Shown here: positions 1 to 18,121 of the stretch, piece after piece
Numbering within the stretch: the first letter of the stretch is position 1
How the letters are laid out: each line of letters opens with the position of its first letter
Assembly: GCF_963921235.1 (NCBI RefSeq)
Contig: NC_086108.1
Span: forward strand, 87,174,001-87,238,000
From: Mobula hypostoma
Lineage: Eukaryota
Length of the DNA: 64,000 nt
Reading direction: 5' to 3'
Translations under genes and position numbers: made by a program
The notes under the pieces: generated by a model
The model's database searches: none
What the model saw: only the letters and a program-made list of their open reading frames with translations
What the model was told of the DNA's origin: nothing

Positions 1-2551
1 AACATTATACTCGTATAACCCGGATGGAGTGACAAATGCTGAGATTTCTCTAGCCCGGTCGGTTAAAGGAACGCACCAGTACCCTTTCAGCAAATCAATC
101 TTTGTGATGTACTTAGCTCTCCTCACTTTATCGATGCAATTGTCTACCCCTGGGATGGGATACGCATCAGTTTTTGTGATGGCGTTCACTTTTCTGTAAA
201 CTGTACAGAATCGTATGCTCCCATCGACTTTCGGGACAACCACACAGCGGGGGCACTCATTCCGATTTGAATGGCCTAATAATATCTGTGGCTAACATGT
301 GTTCAATTTCTTTCTCCACTAGCTTGCCCTTCTCCAAGTTCATCCTATAGGGGTGTTGTTTAATAGGCTGGTCTGAGGTGACAACAACATCATGCACCAT
401 CCCTTTGCATTGCCTCGGGACGTCCGGACATACGTCTGTGGGCTGATTAATTAGCTTTATCAGCGGCTCGCTCTGTTCGGGGGTTAGGTGAGGACCTTAT
501 CAGCAAAATTGGCCAAAACAATAGAGTTCTCCAATCGGGTCGGCACCATATTTATCTTTTCAAGATGGGTTTTCCCTGTATCATTTGACACCCCAGTCTC
601 ATTAATTTTCGTGATAACACCAACTAGATCTGCTTTCTGATCGTGGTAAGCTTTTAACATGTTAATGTGTACCAACTGTGTGGGTTTACGCCTGTCCGGC
701 GTTTCGATAACATAATTCAAAGGGTCTATCTTTTTAATTACCTTGTACGGACCGTGGAATCTCGCCTGGAGGGGGTTGGTTACCACTGGAAACAGAACTA
801 AGACCTGATCGCCCACTTGAAACACTTGTTCACGGGCACGCCTATCATACCATTGTTTCATTTTAGTTTGGGAGTGTCGTAGATTTTCTTTGGCAAGGTC
901 ACAGATCCTTTTAAGCCTCTCACGAAATTTTAAAACATAATCAATCACATTAACTTGGACTGCCGGACTGGACCGTTGCTCTTCCAGTAAGGTCAGGGGG
1001 TCTCTGGGCCGATGACTGAAGATGAGCTCGAATGGGCTGAACCCCAATGACTCCTAAACCGTGTCCCTCACGGCAAATAGCAAAAGGGGCAGAGCATCAT
1101 CCCAGCCCCTAGCGTTCTCTTGACAGTAAATTTTAACCATAGTCTTTAATGTTGCGTGGAATCGTTCCAACACCCCTTGGGACTCTGGGTGGTACGCAGA
1201 GGCCAAAATCTGCTTTGCTCCCATCTCATCCAACATCCGTCGGAATGTGTGAGATGTGAAGACACTCCCCTGATCTGACTGGATTTCCCTGGGCAGCCCC
1301 ACTGTAGTGAAAAATTTCACAAGTGCGTTTACCACTGCGGGAGCCTTGACGCTTGCCAGGGGCACAGCCTCCGGAAACCTGGTGGCGGCGCACATCATAG
1401 TCATCACATACACCCGCCCACTCGCAGTTCTGGGAAGGGGACCGACAAAATCCACAATTATTCAGGGAAAAGGTTCCCCGAAAGCGGGTATCGGTCGCAG
1501 GGGTGCTTTAGGCAGGACCTGGTTCGGTTTTCCTACCACCTGACATAAATGACATCGCCTACAATATTCAATAATATCCTTCCTCATGTTCGGCCAGTAA
1601 AACTCTTTCATAATTCTGTCACTGTCTTCCTCACCCTAGAATGTCCACCGAGGGGTATCTTGTGGGCCAGGTTAAAAATCTCGCCCCTATTAATTTTTGG
1701 CACTACCACCTGGTGTACCACTCCCCATTCCTCATCTGCGGGCATGGTACTTGGTCTCCATTTACTCATTAGTACTCCCTCCTTCACATAATAGCCCACT
1801 GGCTCCCTTTTTAATTCTGCTTCGGAGAGAACTGTCTCCGCCAAAACCATTAGCTCCTCGTCTCGTTCCTGTGCCTGTGTATAAATTCCTTCCTTGCTAA
1901 TGATAAATCTACCTCAACTCCCTCACTTCCTTCCGCTTCATTATGCTCCTTCTTCTCACTTTCTAACTCCTCCTGGTACAAAGCTGGTAAAAACGTCTCA
2001 GCTAAACCTATGTTCACTTCAGCAGCCTTTCTGGACATGCGCCGAGTCACTGCGCAAACAGTATAAACCTGTGAATCCATGGGCGGGTCCTCAATCCTGG
2101 GAGGCTGTCTTGTCAATCTTACTACTGGGTACACCTCTCCGCCGGCGAGGTCATTACCGAGTAAGACCTCCACGTCTTCCATTGGTAGTTCAGGCCTCAC
2201 CTCTATCGTGACCAGTCCGGAGACCAAGTCACTTTTTAGGTGTATCTGGTGCAAGGGTCCCTTTCCCAATGCCTTTTATCACACTGACCTCCCCAGTCTC
2301 GGTCTCTGAACTATTAAGTCTAAAACACTCCTTAAGATCGGTGACTGACAAGCTCCAGTGTCTCTCCAGATCCACACTGAAACTGGATTTGACCCCTCCT
2401 TCACCGACACCAATCCGGTCGAAATAAACTTCTCACGCCCTTCCTGAACTCTATCAGACCTCTTCTCCCTTAAAGGTTTGTTTGACGGCTCAATACAGCC
2501 AGTCGGAGTCGTCATTTTTCCTTTCCCGTCTCCTTCTTTGGGGCAAAGCAC
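1..2551 (-). pseudogene. pol (protease, integrase, RT N-half), multiple frameshifts and stops
   Basis: Fragmented ORFs 2279-2551, 1850-2269, 1608-1850, 1054-1455 and 484-1047 carry PR and IN motifs; RT motifs lie in 1-480. Confidence 0.9.
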
Positions 2552-2559
2552 CTAGACGC

Positions 2560-3813
2560 AAAGTGACCGGCTTTCCCACAATTATAGCATACGACCCCAG
2601 GAGACTTCCTACCAAACTGCTTTCTGTCTTCCTTATCCTTCTCACTAGTGCCTGGCTTACTTTCTGGCTTTTCCGGCGGACTCTCTCCGCCCTCTCGACT
2701 ACCCTTGTGGTAGCTTTTACTCAGGTAAACTTCGCTTTGTGTGTTAACGCATATTCATCCGCTAACTTTGCAGTTGTGGCTAAGGTTTCTGCCTCTTTCT
2801 CATCTAGATAGGGCCTCATACCTTCAGGGACACAACCTTTAAATTGCTCAATCAGTATTAGCTGTAGCAGTCTGTCAAAATCCCAATTGACTCCTTTCGA
2901 GGCGCACCAACGCTCACAATACATCTGCATCTCACGGGCAAACTCTAAATACGTGCGGCCCCACTGCTTCCTCACATTCCGGAACCTCTGCCGGTATGCC
3001 TCCGGGATCAACTTGTAAATCCTGAGTATCGCCTCTTTCACCACATCATACCTCTGGGCGTCTTCTGTAGACAATGCCGAGTAAGCTTGCTGAGCCTTCC
3101 CTTTAAGTACGCTCTGAAGCAAAACAGCCCACTTATCCCTCGGCCAGTCCTGACTTGCAGCGACTTTTTCAAAATGTAGAAAGTACCGATCAACATCGGC
3201 CTCCTCAAATGGGGGAACCAGCCTAACCTCCTGGGTCACCCTGAACCCTCCACCTTGGTTCGGCATGGGACCCTGCACTAGTGTCATCCTTAACTTCTCC
3301 AGCTCAAATTCCCTGTCCTTCTGCTTCTCTCTCTCTTCTCGTTCTAACTGCCTGTCCCTCTCTTCTCGTTCCAGCTGCTTTATTCTCTCTTCTCATTCTA
3401 ATTGCCTGTCCCTCTCTTCTCGTTCCAGCTGTTTTATTCTCTCTTCTTGTTCTAACTGCCTGTCCCTCTCTTCTCGTTCCAGCTGTTTTATTCTCTCTTC
3501 TTGTTCTAACTGCCTGTCCCTCTCTTCTCGTTCCAGCTGTTTTACTCGGAACGTGCTCGAGTCTCAATTTTTCCATCTGCAGCTGTACTGCTTCTCCACC
3601 AGGTTTGCCCATGGATACCACCTCCAGCTCCCCTTGGGGAAACACACCTTTAGATACATAATGTTCAATAATAGCTCCGTGCATCTCTGCTCTCCTCATT
3701 GTGGACTTCCCCTTAAAAAGATTCAACCATTTGGCATCAGTCACCAATTCTGATTTCCTGGCATCCTCTAATGCCTCCAAGGTTGGTGCCTTTAGAAATT
3801 CCTCAATCTCCAT
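2560..3813 (-). pseudogene. gag (SCAN-like capsid, degenerate CCHC), frameshifted
   Basis: ORF pieces 3304-3813 and 2721-3287 align closely to the Gag part of the 917-aa ORF at 13953. Confidence 0.88.
3325..3545 (-). repeat. 54-bp tandem repeat (~4 copies) within gag, encoding an E/R/Q-rich 18-aa coiled-coil unit
   Basis: TTCTAACTGCC-like motif recurs at 3342, 3396, 3450 and 3504; the gag frame reads LEREERDRQLEQEERIKQ. Confidence 0.9.
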
Positions 3814-3889
3814 TTCTGTTGTTTACCCTTTCTTTCTTTTGGGAATTTTAACCCAATCAATTTACCCAGTCCCAAATTTGGCGTTCAAA

Positions 3890-3907
3890 ATCCCAGACGA
3901 GCCCCCA
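3890..3907 (-). promoter_or_regulatory. Primer-binding site, tRNA-Pro
   Basis: TGGGGGCTCGTCTGGGAT lies 4 nt after the LTR; 17/18 match to the canonical tRNA-Pro PBS TGGGGGCTCGTCCGGGAT. Confidence 0.9.
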
Positions 3908-3911
3908 CTTA

Positions 3912-4780
3912 TGTTACGTACCCTGTAACTGGGTTGCCAAACCAGCAGAACTGGACCACTAGTTGGAGTCTGGTTTACTAGAATCTAATAAAGTTTTATT
4001 AAAGAAATAAGTAACACAGTACTCTAATCGTAACGATATAAATGCAACAGGTTAGCAATGATAAAACACACATGTACACAGAACTAGGGTAATGGGAATC
4101 AACCAAGCTCTATCGCAGTCGAGGGGTAAAATGATCAGTCTTAAGTGACGCAGAGTTCAGTTCAGCTTAGTGCAGTTGTGCCGTTGGAGAGAGAGAAAGA
4201 GAGAGGGCGGGGGGAATGCAAATTTGATTCAAGCAAACCTTTGATGTTCTTCGCAGTTTGCTTTCGGGCAGACCCTTCTATACCTTCTATCCGCTTTCAG
4301 GCGGACCCTTTTAGGTCTTCTATTTCACTGTGGTCACCGACTGTGACCCCTCCGTTCCGGAAACGACCGTTCTTCCGTGGTGAACCCGGCACCCAGGCAA
4401 GGGCGGACACACACACCAGGTTCCCACCGATCATACCTTTTCACCCTGTGAGTCTATGGTTGGTTCCTGTGAACCGGACCTCCAAGCTCCTACCTACTTG
4501 TGGGGGCACACCGCTCTTTCAGGGTCTCGTTATCTCGTGATCTTGTGGTGTCTGCCGTGCCTTAGCGAACCTGTTCTTTTTATCCCCCTGCTGGGGTATC
4601 GCCCGTCCATCAAACTTCAAACAGTTCAGGTTCAAAGCAACCGGTCTGTCAATATTCTGAATTGTGTTTCTTTTCCGTTATCTCTCTCTCCTCTCTCATT
4701 AACATTTTGAACGTTTCTCCATTGTCTTCCTTATCTCTCTCATCAGCATCAATCGTCTGATAACTTGGTTTGGCGTCACA
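3912..4780 (-). repeat. 5' LTR of the decayed Gmr1-like element (869 bp)
   Basis: Minus-strand termini TGTGACG...CGTAACA, followed by a PBS; R/U5 half homologous to the LTRs at 11452, 12997 and 16879. Confidence 0.9.
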
Positions 4781-5052: not shown

Positions 5053-6444
5053 TCTATATACTACTAAAACTGTCATGCTCTGTTTGTCTGTTTGTGACCT
5101 CCAATTAGCGCAAATGGTGCATTACAGCGGCACTTTTTTTTGGCTAAATCGAATTAAAATGTGCTAACTTACAGAATGCAGGCAAAGTGCAGGGGTATAT
5201 ATTTGTTTAAAATTGCTCATTCACCAAAAATCAACAGACTGCCTTTCACCCAAGACCCGATCAGCCATCATGGAAACTGTGATGCCACAGCCCGATGCAT
5301 GCGCACGGCCAGCCTCAGCAGCTTGGAGGCTTTGGTGTTACTGCTTCCTATCTTATCAAGCATTAGGGTAAAAATATATGGATAGCTTAATTATGCTGCG
5401 TGGAAAGAGAATGGGGACATTCTCGTCAAGAGATGACGCCAAACGTCGTCGGGAAGCGGCAAGGAGAGGGAGAGAACAGCAATCGGATGAGGCCAGGGCC
5501 ACACGACTCCAGGATCAAAGAGTCAGGACAAAAAAGATGAGAGAAGACGAGACAGAGGAGGACAGCCATGCACGTCTCCAAAATGACAACGATAGGCACA
5601 GACCGAGGAGAGAAAAAGAATGATCAGGCCAGGGCCGCACGACTCCAGGATCAGGGAGAAAGAACAAATGGTAGAAGAGACGAAAGATGAAAGGGCTGCG
5701 CGTCTCCAGAATGACAAAAACAGGCAGAGAAGGAGGAGAGCGGAAGAGACAGAGGAGAAAAGGAAAGATCAAGTTTAGAATATGCGGCACAGAGTAATTA
5801 TTGCGAGAGTTGCTGAAGGCGACAATAGCCGCTTTCGACGACAATACCTCGACAGAGAAAGAGCAATGCAAAATGCACGACTCGCATGCCATCACATTTC
5901 TGCTGATGTTGGTTCGATGACCAGAGTATGCCCTCACTGTTGTGCCTTCCTATTCACTGGAGAAACTGTACATTTCTGCTGTATAAAGGGAAAGGTCAGG
6001 ACAGGCAATTTGCAGCCTCTACCTAATGAACTCCTCAATTTGTACAGCAATGATGAACCTATTGCAAATGAGTTCAGGAAGAACATCAGACAATACGACT
6101 GCCTCTTCCAAATGACATCCTTTGGTGCCAAAGAAGTCATTCCAACTAGAAATCGATGGAATCCTTCTGTGATTATTCAAGGCCAAATCCATCATTACAT
6201 CGGACATTTAATTCCAGACCCGACCCAGCAAGCCCCATTCCTTCAAATTTACTTCATTGATATTTAATGTTCATTCTAGTCACATATTTGTCTTTATTCT
6301 TTAATAAGCTGAGTTTTTCTTCTTTGATTTCCAAATCACAGAGATAGCAATAGCATTCAGGAAAATTTAATGTTCATCCTGGTCACATCAGACTGCACTA
6401 CCCTTCTCTCAAAGGGTGCCCCAACGGGTCACCCCATTGTCTAG
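5053..6444 (+). mobile_element. Non-autonomous (internally deleted) Helitron with both termini
   Basis: 5' TCTATATACTACTAAAAC follows a host A. Subterminal hairpin GGGTGCCCCAACGGGTCACCC (6414-6434), 3' CTAG followed by host T, no TSD. Confidence 0.9.
5392..6267 (+). pseudogene. Helitron RepHel N-terminal fragment (STPR-like repeats, CxxC/CC zinc motif), truncated before Rep and helicase
   Basis: CPHCCAFLFTGETVHFCCIKGKV...FRKNIRQYDCLFQMTSFGA...IQGQIHHYIGHLIP...FLQIYFID is typical of Helitron N-termini; upstream charged 23-aa repeats are frameshifted. Confidence 0.85.
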
Positions 6445-11029: not shown

Positions 11030-12560
11030 TTCTCACGATAGGTCTTTCCATTCCAGGACATTCAAGAGGTCCTCTTTTTACAGAAAATGATGTATCCCCT
11101 CCACCACTATCAATGCAGTGCTCACCAGAAACTTCTCCATTTCTCAGATATTGGTCCTCGTGTTATTTTTCTCCAACATAACAGGGATGTCGCCCTGTGT
11201 CTCCATCCCTTTGTCCTGTAGCATAGCAGTTAGCATAATTCTTTAAAGCACTAGCTGTCAGATCAGTGTTCAATTCCTGTCATTGTCTGTAAGGAGTTCT
11301 TACATTTCCCCATGATTAGTCTGGTTTTCTCCCACATTTCAAGAGATGGATGGGTTAGGTCTGCATCCCATGAGATTCTGCATCCAACATATCATTCCCT
11401 GCAACTTCTGCCATCCCTAATGTGATCCCTCCACTGGCACATTATCCCCTCTGTTACGTACCCCGTAACTGGGTTGCCAAACCAGCGGAAATGGATCACT
11501 CAGTTGGAGTCTGGATTACTAGAACTAAGAAAGTTTATTAAAGAAACAAGCAACACAGTAATCGAAAGGATAATAAATGCAACAGTTCAGCAATGATAAA
11601 CACACATGTGCACAGAATTAAGATAACAGCATCAATCAAGCTCTATCGTTGTCTAGGGGTAAATGACCAATTTCAAAGTGACACAAAGTTCAGTCCAATT
11701 TAGTTCAGTTCGCAGTAATCGTTGCCGTGGCGATGGACAATGTAGGGGGAGGGAGAGAGAGAACGAGAACGACTGATCATTCAGAACGGCTTCCACTCAC
11801 AGACCAGCGATATGGCTCACAAGCAGCTTTTGGGCGGGTCCTTTGTGATGTCACCTGAGGTCACCGACTGTGACCCCTCCTCCAGATGCGGTCGATCCTC
11901 TGCAGTGAACCCGGCACCCAAGCGAGGGTGGACACACACCGGGTTCCCGCTGATCGTACCTTTCCACCCTGTGCGTTTAAGGCTGATCCCCCAATCAGCC
12001 GTCCAAGAGCTTCTCACCGACTTGTGAGAGGCGCACCGCTTCCAGGGTCTCGTTACCTCGAGTGTCGTGTGTCTGCTGCCTTAGCGAACCTGTCCCTTTT
12101 TATCCCCCTGCTGGGGTATCGCCTGTCCATCACTTCAAACAGTTCAGGGTTCAAAGGGGGAGCCGCTCCAGACAGCTCTCTCTCCCGTCCCTTCATTACA
12201 CATCTCCAGATGCTGCTTCATTGTTCCTTATCTCTTCTTCCCCTGAAGACAGGTGGCAGAGCAACTGCTGATGCCACTGATGCTAGCCCAGGCCAGCAAA
12301 CATCTTAATTTATGTGTATTCTCGTCACACCTCCCATCCTCTGTCCATTTTCTCAGGGTTCTCTCTCCTCATGACCTCCTTGTCCACTTGACCCTCATGC
12401 CAATTGGCCCCCAGGCACTTAGCCCTGCAACCATCCCAAATGTTACACCACATCTCTTTCTTTTCAGTTCTGTTGAAGGGCCTCAGCCAAAATAAAAATG
12501 TTCATTTCCCTCCACAGATGTTGCTTGTCCTGCTAAATTCCTCCAGAATTTCTGTGTGTG
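11030..12560 (+). mobile_element. Penelope-like fragment, inverted relative to 10236-11010, hosting a SINE piece (11217-11360) and a solo LTR
   Basis: Penelope-like RT/linker sequence; tail ACAGATGTTGCTTGTCCTGCTAAATTCCTCCAGAATTTCTGTGTGTG at 12514-12560; degenerate HHR at ~12465-12500. Confidence 0.65.
11452..12329 (-). mobile_element. Solo LTR of the Gmr1-like family (878 bp)
   Basis: TG...CA termini, 4-bp TSD CCTC (11448-11451 and 12330-12333), no PBS or internal sequence; homologous along its length to 12997-13853. Confidence 0.93.
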
Positions 12561-12996
12561 TTTCTCCTCTCCAGCATATGTAATAATGTGTGAAAATAAC
12601 AGCTTTATGTGACAATAACATTATTGTCACATCACTCCTTCTTCTTTCTGGACTCAGTACAGAATTCAACAATCTCAAATCATTAATAACTTCCAATATT
12701 TTCATGATTTTTTAAAAAAGTCATAGAGTCAAAGAGCCATACAGCATAGATACAGGCTGTTCAATCCAAAGACTCCATGCCAACCATAGTTCCCACCCAT
12801 CTAGTCCCAATAGTCCCAATTTCCTATCTTTGGCCGATATTCCATATACACTCTACTCTCTGTGTGAGAAAGTTGCTCCTCGAGTCCCTTCTAAATGTTT
12901 CTTTCTCACCACTATCTATGTCCACTAGTTTTGGTTTCCCCTACGTTGGAGTAAAAACTGTTACTGTCCATCTCCCCACCAGCCTCTTTTCTTTTC

Positions 12997-13853
12997 TGTT
13001 ACGAGAATACACATAAAATTAAGATGTTTGCTGGCCTGGGCTAGCATCAGTGGCATCAGCAGTTGGTCTGCCACCTGCCCTCAGGGGAAGGAGAGATAAG
13101 GAACAATGGAGCAGCGTCTGGAGATGTGTAATGAAGGGACGTGGGAGAGGGAGCTGTCTGGAGCGGCTCCCCCTTTGAACCCTGAACTGTTTGAAGTGAT
13201 GGACAGGCGATACCCCAGCAGGGGGATAAAAAGGGACAGGTTCGCTAAGGCGACACACACGCCACCCGAGGTAACGAGACCCTGGAAGCGGTGCGCCTCT
13301 CACGAGTGGGTGAGAAGTGCCAGACAACGACAAGGGTGGAAAGGTACGATCAGCGGGAACCCGGTGTGTGTCCGCCCTTGCCTGGGTGCCGGGTTCACTG
13401 CAGAGGATCGACCGCATCTGGAGGAGGGGTCACAGTCGGTGACCTCAGGTGACATCACCAAGGACCCGCCCAAATGCTGTTTGTGAGCCATCTCGCTGGT
13501 CTGTGAGTGAAGCCGTTCTGAATGATCAGTTGTTCCTATTCTATGTCTCTCTTCCCCCACCTTGTCCATCGCCATGGCAACGATTACTGCGAACTGGACT
13601 ACTAACTGGACTGAACTTTGAGTCATTTTGAAATTGGTCATTTACCCCTAGACAACGATAGAGCTTGATTGATGCTGTTATCTTAATTCTGTGCACATGT
13701 GTGGTTATCATTGTTGAATTGTTGCATTTATTATCCTTTCGATTACTGTGTTGCTTGTTTCTTTAATAAAACTTTCTTAGTTCTAGTACTCCAGACTCCA
13801 ACCGAGTGATCCATTTCTGCTGGTTTGGCAACCCAGTTACGGGGTACGTAACA
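12997..13853 (+). repeat. 5' LTR
   Basis: TGTTACG...CGTAACA; TATA-like GGATAAAAAG at ~13224; AATAAA at 13765. Confidence 0.96.
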
Positions 13854-13857
13854 TAAG

Positions 13858-13876
13858 TGGGGTTCTCGTCCGCGAT
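13858..13876 (+). promoter_or_regulatory. Variant tRNA-Pro primer-binding site
   Basis: TGGGGTTCTCGTCCGCGAT versus canonical TGGGGGCTCGTCCGGGAT, after a TAAG spacer. Confidence 0.8.
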
Positions 13877-13952
13877 TTTGAACGCTAAATTTGGGACAGA
13901 GTAAATTGATTGGGTTAAAATTCCCGAAAGAAAGAAAAGACAAACAGCAGAA

Positions 13953-16706
13953 ATGGAGGTTGAGGAATTTATAAAGGCGCCGACCTTGGAGGCATTAGAG
14001 GATGCCAGGAAATCGGAATTGATAGCTGTGGCCAAACGGGTGAATCTTGCTAAGGTGAAGTCGACAATGAGGAGAGAGGAGATACACAGAGCTATTGTAG
14101 AGCACTATGTATCTAAAGGTGTGTTTCCCCAAGGTGAGCTGGGGGAGGTGTCTATTGAAAAACCTGCTGGAGACGCGGTACAGGTACAGCTTGAAAAACT
14201 GAGACTCGAGCACGAGTTCCGGGTACGGCAGTTAGAACACGAAGACAGACAGTTGGAGAGAGAGGAGAAACAGAGGGAAAGGGAATTTGAGCTGGAGAAG
14301 TTAAAGATAAGGGCCGAGCAGGGGCTCGTGCCGAACCAAGGTGGAGGGTTCCGGGCGACCCAGGAGGTTAGGCTGGTTCCCCCATTTGACGATACCGATG
14401 TGGATCGGTACTTTCTCCATTTCGAAAAAGTGGCTATAAGTCAGGACTGGCCAAGGGATAAGTGGGTTGTTTTACTTCAGAGTGTACTGAAAGGGAAAGC
14501 CCAACAAGCTTACTCCGCTTTATCCGCGGAAGATGCCCAGAGGTATGAGGTGGTGAAGGAGGCCATCCTCAGGATTTATGAGTTGGTCCCGGAGGCATAC
14601 CGGCAGAGGTTCCGGAATGCGAGGAAGCGGTGGGACCGCACGTATTTGGAGTTTGCTCGCGAGATGCAAACATATTGTGAGCGTTGGTGCGCCTCAAAAG
14701 GGGTAGAGGGGGATTATGACAGACTGCTGCAGCTGATTCTGATTGAGCAGTTTAAAGGTTGTGTCCCTGAGGGTATGAGACCCTACCTCGATGAGAAAGA
14801 GGCAGCCACGTTAGCCGCAACTGCTAAGTTAGCGGATGAGTATGCGTTGACACATAAAATGAAGTTTGCCCCGAGTAAAGGCTACCAGAAGGGTAGTCAG
14901 GACGGAGGGGAGAGTCCGCCGGAAAAGTCAGAAAGTAAGCCGGGGACTAGTGAAAAGGATAAGGTAGACCGGGAGCAGTCTGGTAGGAAGTCTCCTGGGG
15001 TCGTCTGTTATAATTGTGGGAAAGTCGGACACTTTGCGTCCAGGTGCTTTGCCCCAAGGAAGGAGACGGGGAAAGGAAAAGCGGAAATTTTGAATGGCTG
15101 TATCGAGCTGTTAAGCGAACCGCTAGGGAAGGACAGGTCTGAAAAAGTCCAGGAAGGGCGCGAGAGGTTTATCTCGGCCGGATGGGTGTCAGTGAAGGAG
15201 GGGTTAAAACCAGTTCCAGTGCGGATCTGGAGAGACACGGGAGCGTGTCAGTCATTGATATTGAAGAGTGTATTAGAGTTTAGCTCAGAGACCCAGACTG
15301 GGGAGGTAGAGGTCAAAGGTGTTGGGGAAGGGACAGAGTCAGTCCCTTTGCACCAGATACATTTACAGAGCAACCTGGTCTCTGGACTAGTCACGATCGG
15401 GGTGAGGTCCGAATTACCGATGAAAGACGTGGAAGTCTTGCTCGGTAATGACATCGCCGGAGGAATCGTGTTCCCAGTCGTGAGATTGACGGGTCAGCCT
15501 GCCAGCATGGAGGCCCCGCCCGCGATGGTGAATTTGGCTGAAACATTTCTGCCAACCTTGTATGAGACAGGGTGTAGTGAGATAAGAGGTAGTGAGGGAG
15601 CTGGGACGGACGTAGCAGTAGCCAGGAAAGAATTTGTGCAGACGCAGGAGCGAGACGAGGGGCTGATGGTTTTGGCAGAGACCGCTCTCTCTGACACAGC
15701 CTTGACAAGCTATTGTGCGGAGGAGGAAGTGCTAAGGAAGAAAGGGAAATCAAGTACAGTACCCGCAGATGAGGAATGGGGGGTGGTGCAAAAGAGTTAT
15801 GGGGATGAGGTTTTTAACATGGCCCACGAGGTACCCCCCGGTGGACATTTTGCGGTGCTGGAGGAAACAGTTGGTGGAATCATGAAAAAGATTTACCGGC
15901 TGCCCAGGGGGAAGAATGTTATTGATCATGACCGACGCGAACTGAGACGGTCACCGGCTTTTGATATGCTAACAAACCTAGTCGGTGTTAGCGTGGAAAT
16001 CAATGAAGCTAGGGGCCCCTTGATAAGAGGAAAAAACCATTTTGAAAAGATTAGGATGGGATCGGTCAGATGGGAGAAGGCTATTGTTTTGGCCAGGTCT
16101 ACTGATAAGGTCTCTCCCTTAATCCCCGAAGGAGTAATTAAACGACTCGCACCCATGTGTTTGATTGTCCCGAGGAAATGCAAAGAACTGGGACGTTGGG
16201 TGATTGTGGTTACAATAGGGCAGCCAAGTAAACAACACCCATATTTTTCGAGTAATTCAGTGACTAAAGGTCTGATGAACACAGAGGTGTGTATTGGCAA
16301 TTTAATACGGCTGTCTGAAGCCAGTTTGATAGTGAACCTTGAAAAAAATGAATTCGGCCACACGAGGGTCACTTACCTGGGAATTGTGGTGACACAGGGG
16401 CAGCTGGCAGTGATGCAAGCTACAGTGCAGGCTATCGCTGACCTCCCAACCCCGACAGACAAGAGGGCCCTCGGAAGGCTTTTGGAGATGGTGGGGTACT
16501 GCAGGAAGTTTTGCAATAACTCTGCGGTCAATACCCGTCCCCCTCCTACTAAGCCCTTGCGAGAGAAAATTGAGTCGGAATGGGACGACCCTTGTTGTTG
16601 TGGTCCGGGACAAAACCAAATGAGAGGTTACATTGGTCGCAATTCATCAGTGTTTTTGGCCACTATGAAGTTTGCTGAGTTGGAGCCTGGTCTAAGGGAT
16701 TATTAA
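13953..16706 (+). CDS. 917-aa Gag-protease polyprotein fused in frame to deleted, inactive IN, RT and RNase H remnants
   Basis: SCAN-like capsid region, CYNCGKVGHFASRC knuckle (15006-15047) and protease DTG (15234). IN H-x-H remnant AHEVPPGGH; RT YIDD position reads CIGN (16290); RT thumb is present; RNase H TDHNPL position reads IGRNSS. Confidence 0.9.
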   Translation: MEVEEFIKAPTLEALEDARKSELIAVAKRVNLAKVKSTMRREEIHRAIVEHYVSKGVFPQGELGEVSIEKPAGDAVQVQLEKLRLEHEFRVRQLEHEDRQLEREEKQREREFELEKLKIRAEQGLVPNQGGGFRATQEVRLVPPFDDTDVDRYFLHFEKVAISQDWPRDKWVVLLQSVLKGKAQQAYSALSAEDAQRYEVVKEAILRIYELVPEAYRQRFRNARKRWDRTYLEFAREMQTYCERWCASKGVEGDYDRLLQLILIEQFKGCVPEGMRPYLDEKEAATLAATAKLADEYALTHKMKFAPSKGYQKGSQDGGESPPEKSESKPGTSEKDKVDREQSGRKSPGVVCYNCGKVGHFASRCFAPRKETGKGKAEILNGCIELLSEPLGKDRSEKVQEGRERFISAGWVSVKEGLKPVPVRIWRDTGACQSLILKSVLEFSSETQTGEVEVKGVGEGTESVPLHQIHLQSNLVSGLVTIGVRSELPMKDVEVLLGNDIAGGIVFPVVRLTGQPASMEAPPAMVNLAETFLPTLYETGCSEIRGSEGAGTDVAVARKEFVQTQERDEGLMVLAETALSDTALTSYCAEEEVLRKKGKSSTVPADEEWGVVQKSYGDEVFNMAHEVPPGGHFAVLEETVGGIMKKIYRLPRGKNVIDHDRRELRRSPAFDMLTNLVGVSVEINEARGPLIRGKNHFEKIRMGSVRWEKAIVLARSTDKVSPLIPEGVIKRLAPMCLIVPRKCKELGRWVIVVTIGQPSKQHPYFSSNSVTKGLMNTEVCIGNLIRLSEASLIVNLEKNEFGHTRVTYLGIVVTQGQLAVMQATVQAIADLPTPTDKRALGRLLEMVGYCRKFCNNSAVNTRPPPTKPLREKIESEWDDPCCCGPGQNQMRGYIGRNSSVFLATMKFAELEPGLRDY

Positions 16707-16866
16707 TAACACGTGTAAAAGGAACAGAAAATGTGATGACTGTCTGTCAAGGTGTTGACAGCTTCAAATTCTCTGTATTAGCTAAATAACTGTTAAAGAT
16801 GTATATTGTGTATGTATCAGATAATGTAGTCATGTTTGTAATTTTTACCTCCCGGTAAAAATCCTT

Positions 16867-16878
16867 AAAGGGGGGAAG
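16867..16878 (+). promoter_or_regulatory. Polypurine tract
   Basis: AAAGGGGGGAAG immediately before the 3' LTR TG. Confidence 0.9.
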
Positions 16879-17735
16879 TGTTACGAGAATACACATAAAA
16901 TTAAGATGTTTGCTGGCCTGGGCTAGCATCAGTGGCATCAGCAGTTGGTCTGCCACCTGCCCTCAGGGGAAGGAGAGATAAGGAACAATGGAGCAGCGTC
17001 TGGAGATGTGTAATGAAGGGACGTGGGAGAGGGAGCTGTCTGGAGCGGCTCCCCCTTTGAACCCTGAACTGTTTGAAGTGATGGACAGGCGATACCCCAG
17101 CAGGGGGATAAAAAGGGACAGGTTCGCTAAGGCGACACACACGCCACCCGAGGTAACGAGACCCTGGAAGCGGTGCGCCTCTCACGAGTGGGTGAGAAGT
17201 GCCAGACAACGACAAGGGTGGAAAGGTACGATCAGCGGGAACCCGGTGTGTGTCCGCCCTTGCCTGGGTGCCGGGTTCACTGCAGAGGATCGACCGCATC
17301 TGGAGGAGGGGTCACAGTCGGTGACCTCAGGTGACATCACCAAGGACCCGCCCAAATGCTGTTTGTGAGCCATCTCGCTGGTCTGTGAGTGAAGCCGTTC
17401 TGAATGATCAGTTGTTCCTATTCTATGTCTCTCTTCCCCCACCTTGTCCATCGCCATGGCAACGATTACTGCGAACTGAACTACTAACTGGACTGAACTT
17501 TGAGTCATTTTGAAATTGGTCATTTACCCCTAGACAACGATAGAGCTTGATTGATGCTGTTATCTTAATTCTGTGCACATGTGTGGTTATCATTGTTGAA
17601 TTGTTGCATTTATTATCCTTTCGATTACTGTGTTGCTTGTTTCTTTAATAAAACTTTCTTAGTTCTAGTACTCCAGACTCCAACTGAGTGATCCATTTCT
17701 GCTGGTTTGGCAACCCAGTTACGGGGTACGTAACA
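16879..17735 (+). repeat. 3' LTR
   Basis: Direct repeat of 12997-13853. Confidence 0.96.
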
Positions 17736-18121
17736 TTTCTAATATCCTCCAGAGCTAATTATGTGATTCACTATTGTCTATACCACCTTCTTTTACCTGG
17801 CTCTGACAACCTCATTACATTTAATCATTCCCAGCCTCTAGCTCACCACATGTATTCTTTTTTGTCTTCTCTGCCTTTCTCACTCATTCCTCTCTATCTT
17901 AAATATTTATGTATTTATTTATTTATTCATTCATTCATTTATTGAGACACAATATGGAATAAGCCCCTCAAGCCATGCTGCCCAGCAACCCCCAATTTAA
18001 CCCTAACCTTCATGGGACAATTTACACCAACCAATTAACTTATCAATTTCACTGATCAATTAACCTATTAGAGCACCTGGAGAAAGCTTGCATTACTTAT
18101 AATGAAAGGCCAACAATCTTT

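Follow-up and report, generated by a model that had tools for sequence, protein, structure and literature searches.

A high-copy satellite retrotransposon of Mobula hypostoma whose catalytically dead pol remnant is probably selected for its open frame

Results

The DNA analyzed here, referred to as the window, is a stretch of 64,000 nucleotides (nt) of Mobula hypostoma contig NC_086108.1 (NCBI RefSeq assembly GCF_963921235.1, positions 87,174,001 to 87,238,000 of the forward strand), and all positions below are those of the window. At 12997-17735 it carries a long terminal repeat (LTR) element in which two LTRs enclose one open reading frame (ORF), and this element and its family are our subject. 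An earlier model-made description from the letters of the window (hereafter the sequence-only reading) had interpreted the 917-amino acid (aa) ORF as Gag and protease (PR) reading through a gutted integrase (IN), reverse transcriptase (RT), and RNase H, and alignment of 13953-16706 to a full-length relative bore this out. The features of the element are as follows.

12993-12996 and 17736-17739 (+): target-site duplication (TSD) TTTC, left and right, 4 nt
12997-13853 (+): 5' LTR, 857 nt, TG..CA ends, AATAAA at LTR position 769
13858-13877 (+): primer-binding site (PBS) of tRNA-Pro type, in a variant form found throughout the family that mismatches the host tRNA-Pro end
13953-16706 (+): whole ORF, 917 aa
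13953-15056 (+): gag, codons 1-368, with an E/R repeat near codon 95, a SCAN-type capsid domain, and a zinc knuckle
14589-14858 (+): SCAN-type capsid domain in gag (Pfam PF02023, aa 213-302, E 1.7e-12)
15003-15047 (+): zinc knuckle in gag (Pfam, aa 351-365)
15057-15522 (+): protease region, D-T-G at 15234-15242
15523-16706 (+): gutted pol tail of 394 codons, ancestral frame retained, remnants with no catalytic motif
15899-15973 (+): integrase-core deletion zone, net -888 nt
16221-16223 (+): codon 757, sense in the window copy, a recurrent stop hotspot in sister copies
16244-16248 and 16296-16306 (+): RT deletions of -384 and -54 nt, flanking the CIGN remnant of YIDD
16595-16600 (+): connection/RNase H deletion, net -258 nt
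16666-16706 (+): terminal -14 frameshift and stop, TAA in 55/57 old and young copies
16867-16878 (+): polypurine tract (PPT)
16879-17735 (+): 3' LTR, 857 nt, 2 substitutions relative to the 5' LTR

The pol tail is made up of the PR-IN linker, half of the IN zinc finger, the IN-RT linker, the end of the RT palm, the RT thumb, and scraps of the connection and RNase H. A Pfam scan of the 917-aa ORF recovered SCAN and the zinc knuckle alone, leaving the 394-aa tail without a match. The ruler for tail alignment was L051, a natural full-length relative. Pfam identified SCAN, a zinc knuckle, IN (H2C2, rve), RT (RVT_1), and RNase H in L051, in that order, and the tail remnants of the window element keep this domain order. 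As first read, CIGN stands at the YIDD equivalent and IGRNSS at the TDHNPL equivalent, and the LTRs differ at 2 of 857 nt. To judge from their sequences, neither the element nor its family encodes any RT, IN, or RNase H activity.

Relative to L051, net length changes along the tail are -63, -21, -12, -15, +3, -888, 0, -18, +3, -384, -54, +3, and -258 nt, each divisible by 3. The first splits into -36 and -27 (27 nt being kept by older copies), giving ten deletions of at least 12 nt. All ten are in frame, an outcome with P 2e-5, or no more than 4e-4 if deletions are guided by microhomology; direct repeats in pol are in frame in 38-45% of cases. Pieces of 27, 21, 12, and 18 nt (78 nt in total) are present in old copies and were lost stepwise in younger ones. 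The other two frames of the tail contain 30 and 32 stops. The first net frameshift is the -14 at 16666, 13 codons upstream of the stop and ~210 nt before the 3' LTR; it is the sole fixed one and shifts the stop by only ~50 nt. The initial claim that neither a stop nor a net frameshift occurs until ~170 nt before the 3' LTR is right for the stop (172 nt) but not for this frameshift. From stop to AATAAA the distance is 941 nt in the window element versus 888 nt in a full-length relative, and a hypothetical stop just after PR would leave 2,125 nt untranslated.

The tail belongs to a high-copy family. A junction 22-mer specific to the satellite had 1,608 exact genome matches (control, 0), and a 20-mer from the end of the satellite ORF had 2,154 with one mismatch allowed; RT motifs of the full-length lineage had 10 and 44, so that by motif counts the satellite outnumbers its full-length partner ~35-50 to 1. 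Searches with the tail gave 40/40 scored matches at 99%, and 128 scored protein matches at 97% or more, the window's own counted. Seven protein matches to the tail were all named Mobula hypostoma, and a Mobula birostris protein bears the older satellite-type protease linker. Sequencing runs of three other organisms (coded B, C, and D) also contain the tail: contigs from B span both the RT and the RNase H junctions, those from C span the RNase H junction and cover most of the IN zone, and a single low-depth contig from D crosses the RT junctions. None of the runs listed as holding the tail is recorded as RNA, and tail contigs in runs guessed to be RNA were not used as evidence.

Our main sample was the first 80 of 100 listed matches on contig C1, which were not picked for an open frame; copies L001-L050, picked by similarity, were excluded from rate estimates, and three copies with unalignable parts (L109, L114, and L120) were dropped from variant counts, leaving 77 of the 80. 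Two LTRs were found in 73/80 copies (median LTR difference 3), with a TSD in 65/73, and the D of the protease D-T-G was kept in 79/80. The full ORF was intact in 13/22 copies with 0-1 LTR substitutions, 11/22 with 2-5, and 4/28 with 6-30, and this falling survival with LTR age fits decay after insertion, as expected. ORF sizes of 917-1,023 aa among copies are accounted for by the E/R-rich gag repeat (14238-14330), the length of which varies with net changes mostly in multiples of 3.

The SCAN capsid and the PR-IN-RT-RNase H order mark this, as far as sequence can tell, as a Gmr1-type (integrase-before-RT) LTR satellite family. Motif counts and sampled copies agree with the earlier proposal of a non-autonomous, multi-copy family with shared deletion junctions, amplified in its deleted form with LTR pairs, TSD, PBS, and PPT, and the predicted full-length relatives with matching LTRs occur as natural copies (ORFs of 1,535-1,564 aa, LTRs 94-98% alike). 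A domesticated Gag-derived host gene is ruled out by at least 1,608 dispersed motif matches and fresh LTR pairs. The TR-GAG class is defined by an ORF that ends with Gag or protease, pol being absent. Because 394 pol-remnant codons follow in frame, the element is not of this Gag-only/Gag-protease class (TR-GAG, Sabrina_SA/WHAM type); it works like Gag-protease elements yet falls outside their definition.

Several RefSeq models (P0001, P0014, and others) annotate copies as host proteins, including a 966-aa copy named 'metastasis-associated in colon cancer protein 1 isoform X1' and a fragment named 'ubiquitin-conjugating enzyme E2 G2 isoform X1'. These labels are likely mis-annotation or LTR-driven chimeric transcripts. 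Head-to-tail tandem arrays with common LTRs, of both satellite and full-length types, were also seen (L050, L053/L054, and C22:122731689-122744949).

Non-CpG variants were scored as shared (at least three copies) or private, and the ratio of nonsynonymous to synonymous changes (N:S) was compared as shared/private; homopolymer frameshifts at 15833, 15905, and 16611, common to unrelated copies, were treated as recurrent. In the 77 copies this ratio was 0.25 for gag (p 2e-6) and 0.90 for the tail (p 0.73), and between old (18) and young (39) copies it was 0.24 (p 0.0005) and 1.07, respectively. Values for PR (0.68 shared/private, 0.54 old versus young) were not significant. The sequence-only reading had asked for gag dN/dS, and gag is under purifying selection. 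A block-wise scan of the tail identified no residue-constrained block. Branch estimates, made by NG86 with three-point branch lengths and no codon-model likelihood, gave dN 0.19-0.20, dS 0.27-0.37, and omega 0.54-0.70 on the tail's own branch (on this scale neutral omega is ~0.7, not 1), as compared to dN 0.02-0.06 on full-length branches. The amino acids of the tail thus drift neutrally.

The frame behaves differently. Some 170 replacement changes have accumulated on the tail with no stop fixed, when 6-10 stops would be expected (P(0) 4e-5 to 2e-3), and the 74 tail differences between old and young copies include 0 stops. Shared tail indels were in frame in 7/8 cases versus 12/35 private ones (p 0.014), and versus 0/25 shared indels in the LTR and 0/4 in the 3' untranslated region (UTR; p 8e-7). 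Because the N:S of the tail is neutral and yet its deletions and indels are in frame and no stop is fixed, we conclude that selection keeps the frame rather than the enzymes, as originally proposed; that the frame is selected at all is very probable.

An open tail could instead reflect luck and mutation bias, through in-frame microhomology deletions, few replication rounds, and a single lucky source lineage. Such an account would be helped by the in-frame share of direct repeats in pol, by the frequent stop at codon 757 in old copies, and by the purging of stops within the family, which is not significant alone, but it must accommodate ~170 replacements without a stop together with large deletions (10/10) and shared indels (7/8) that are in frame where non-coding controls give 0/29. 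It is highly improbable and strongly disfavoured.

The tail had also been suggested to be a decoy or tether that specifically binds helper Pol, for example through the retained RT thumb. The thumb is indeed the least diverged block (83% to young relatives, with 7/225 of the old-young differences), but the proportion of nonsynonymous differences (pN) separating it from each of the relatives is 0.13-0.16, when the relatives differ from one another by 0.04, and residues change at the neutral rate in the tail, thumb included. Because the thumb is nearest to the young lineage and the IN-RT linker to older families, the likeness of the thumb points to re-import by crossover. The decoy or tether is thus unsupported, and we regard it as very improbable.

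Age differs sharply along the element. Similarity of the window element to young full-length relatives is 97-99.6% for gag and 94-98% for the LTR, ~85% for PR, which is of the satellite type and shows this value against most full-length relatives, and 67-84% for tail blocks; for the IN-RT linker the nearest sequences are those of older families (75-79%), and no much closer relative of this linker or of the thumb was present among 40 fetched loci. Five young satellite copies have LTRs 95-99.7% like those of young full-length relatives. From the 29 chromosome C1 copies without the exact CIGN junction motif, 20 were fetched in search of intermediates with more pol, and none of the 20 regains the large deleted pieces. 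What they disclosed was an older subfamily, which has undergone the same large deletions and whose LTRs are 81-84% like those of the window element; in 12/12 copies the LTR of the old satellite best matched that of an old full-length relative (88-96%). The claim that the element moved recently in this form is thus correct for the window copy, which is young, but the gutted structure is old and shared with the old subfamily.

Natural chimeras were also found. In L177 (G000:C1:42868600-42876400) a satellite 5' half is joined to a full pol 3' half, with a crossover near window position 15720, its own TSD (CAGT), and a longest open frame of 678 aa; L062, the other chimera, has a satellite-type PR. 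At the level of sequence, exchange of LTR and gag between the satellite and full-length relatives is evident, and it probably proceeded through template switching in common particles, genomic gene conversion being an alternative. Exchange renews the LTR and gag, whereas the tail is far older, and through exchange the family has survived a change of LTR era.

Old, young, and full-length copies alike retain the variant PBS, which mismatches the host tRNA-Pro end. A tRNA-matching PBS occurs in 15/72 copies, scattered among variant neighbours, and a half-way form in 6; no tRNA gene matching the variant was present among 35 matches of a pattern permitting it. Ribosomes steer the production of PIWI-interacting RNAs (piRNAs), and full translation might protect the RNA against silencing by small RNAs or at the chromatin level, for example by leaving little untranslated sequence for piRNAs, so that an open frame would hide the element rather than spare it nonsense decay. 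The retention of a mismatched PBS despite scattered reversion would suit such shielding, but the PBS effect is independent of the tail, and we consider silencing an improbable reason for the open frame. The pattern itself is like that reported for mouse endogenous retroviruses (ERVs), where tRNA-templated reversion runs against selection for a mismatch that was read as small-RNA escape (PMC7472051), here in a fish gypsy-type element.

Three members of the family lie inside 18 kb of the window: the element, a solo LTR at 11452-12335 (-) that is 91% like it, and an older broken full-length relative at 1-4637 (-) that extends past the window edge. The sequence-only reading had used the copy at 1-3813 for comparison; it is related, but it belongs to an older broken subfamily (LTR ~72% alike) and is not the present partner. 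A 161-aa ORF at 5782-6267 (+) has C-rich and FQMTSFG..QGQIHHYIG motifs, which we take to recall a Helitron Rep fragment.

Discussion

On balance, and by a modest preference, we favor the view that the dead pol is kept in frame because reading to near the normal stop would be needed for RNA stability and packaging. RT, IN, and RNase H would be supplied in trans by rare full-length copies, as TSDs and chimeras suggest. Satellite and full-length RNAs would meet in one particle, where template switching would swap LTR and gag and so keep the satellite compatible with its partner. A stop soon after the protease would leave ~2,100 nt untranslated instead of ~940, and this long untranslated part would expose the unspliced RNA to long-3' UTR (UPF1-type) decay, so that both the RNA and the Gag-PR precursor translated from it in cis would fall. 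The tail would then be a filler able to shrink only in steps of three, as is seen in the losses of 21, 27, 18, and 12 nt from old to young copies. RNA stability and cis-made Gag-PR form the best reading because of the precedent of retroviral full-length RNA, which with its long 3' UTR is reported to be a predicted target of nonsense-mediated decay that needs a stability element (PMC2925335).

A sequence-free C-terminal extension might alternatively serve as protein bulk that helps Gag-PR co-assembly, protease dimerization, or the tie of Gag-PR to its RNA during translation. This would explain a frame without residue selection equally well and agrees with retention of the protease D-T-G, and the mouse IAP 1-delta-1 fusion, for which such a role has been proposed and which is reported to act in cis, is a precedent (PMC6466679, PMC7411935). 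However, shrinkage of the tail continues, young copies being 78 nt shorter there than old ones, and two insertions with different TSDs, L049 (C40) and L096 (C1), share the same 456-nt in-frame deletion of the capsid region (window-equivalent 14439-14894). Because of this deletion the Gag-PR precursor cannot be strictly needed in cis, and we regard protein bulk as rather unlikely.

The RNA-stability reading must itself be weighed against several observations, among them natural stops. Of 21 old copies, 7 have a non-CpG stop at codon 757, two small clades accounting for 5 of these, and 3 have a stop at codon 609; genome-wide, the codon-757 stop occurs in 45/141 old-background and 43/1,037 young-background motif matches. 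Shared stops among old copies are not rarer than chance, and within-family stop purging alone is not significant (0 fixed, ~3 expected). From the youngest background we fetched 20 of 26 codon-757 carriers and analyzed them with L149 (21 in all). They represent 21 different haplotypes on two adjacent backgrounds, the stop follows all four bases, distances among carriers equal those among sense copies (0.020 vs 0.020), and carriers are older (median 5 vs 2 LTR substitutions, p 0.0025). The stop thus looks to be mostly a recurrent hotspot acting after insertion. Nevertheless, the nearest neighbour was also a carrier in 11/21 cases versus ~7 expected, so there may be some inheritance, late stops may pass through some rounds, and selection on them may be soft.

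In old copies codon 757 lies in the loop of a short inverted repeat (16210-16230). This stem is weakened by changes in young copies, among which the stop is at 4% as against 32% in old ones, age and stem being confounded.

The gag signal calls for similar caution, as 51/63 shared gag variants are also found in full-length relatives; it was therefore possibly imported and is not assignable to the satellite, and the shared gag alleles unique to the satellite number 6 N to 6 S. The suggestion that the element is a capsid-encoding satellite packaging its own RNA is weakened by this possibly imported signal and by the 456-nt capsid deletion. Furthermore, in the available part of PMC9744471 the wheat gag-protease elements have no comparable tail, and RNA stability gives no reason why the tail was not deleted outright.

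We tentatively propose 'translation-dependent satellites' as a possible long-lived class, which would maintain an open frame of no particular sequence as a device acting at the RNA level, would refresh LTR and gag from whichever partner is active, and would erode by threes; for such a class the ray family would supply the first measurement of frame-only selection on a dead pol, made over thousands of copies in two LTR eras and several species. Such a family allows selection on the fact of translation to be told apart, in a natural population, from selection on the product, and it has built-in controls in gag, the LTR, the 3' UTR, private mutations, and natural stop-bearing copies. Whether cis translation decides which retroelement RNAs are copied thus becomes testable without constructs. 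For annotators, the lesson is that copies of such satellites get called host genes. Neither the ray family nor frame-only selection on a pol remnant was found described in the open-access literature (Repbase and Dfam being outside the search).

Among known systems, mouse IAP 1-delta-1 offers a close parallel: it is non-autonomous, has one Gag-Pol fusion ORF after internal deletion, needs proteins in trans, and dominates new insertions, its in-frame fusion being reported to help in cis (PMC6466679, PMC7411935). The ray satellite likewise keeps an in-frame Gag-Pol fusion after internal deletion, and frame selection by itself would be no more than an indirect sign that the translation product raises mobility in cis. 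However, IAP 1-delta-1 is reported to have one 1.9-kb deletion reaching into gag, in a young ERV, whereas the ray satellite has a whole gag-PR, ten in-frame deletions, a dS of ~0.3, a gypsy-like Gmr1 type, and neutral residue drift, with frame-only selection measured across copies.

Cattle ERVK[2-1-LTR] D-type elements, mouse ETn/MusD, and koala recKoRV are reported to resemble it in holding an old central piece inside partner-matched LTR/gag-side flanks and in outnumbering competent copies (PMC10924933). The cattle D-type, in the accessible part of that report, lacks intact ORFs, whereas the central piece of the ray satellite is the pol of its own lineage, fused in frame. Wheat RLG_Sabrina_SA and RLG_WHAM are described as semi-autonomous Gag or Gag-protease elements that co-evolve with and switch autonomous partners (PMC9744471), and pol-less Athila of Arabidopsis shows purifying selection on retained ORFs (PMC2410132). 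In these reports, as far as available, the retained wheat and Athila ORFs are selected for residues, unlike the ray tail, no open pol remnant with residue-neutral drift appears, and non-autonomous RLC_Angela, also unlike it, has degenerate coding sequence full of stops and frameshifts (PMC9744471). Gmr1-like retrotransposons are reported to have a SCAN-type capsid followed by PR, IN, and RT-RNase H in one frame (bioRxiv 10.1101/2025.03.03.638093), as here, but the ray family has lost the IN core, RT palm, and RNase H. Fusion satellites and partner-matched flanks are thus kinds already known; what is unusually clean in the ray family is the population evidence for frame-only selection.

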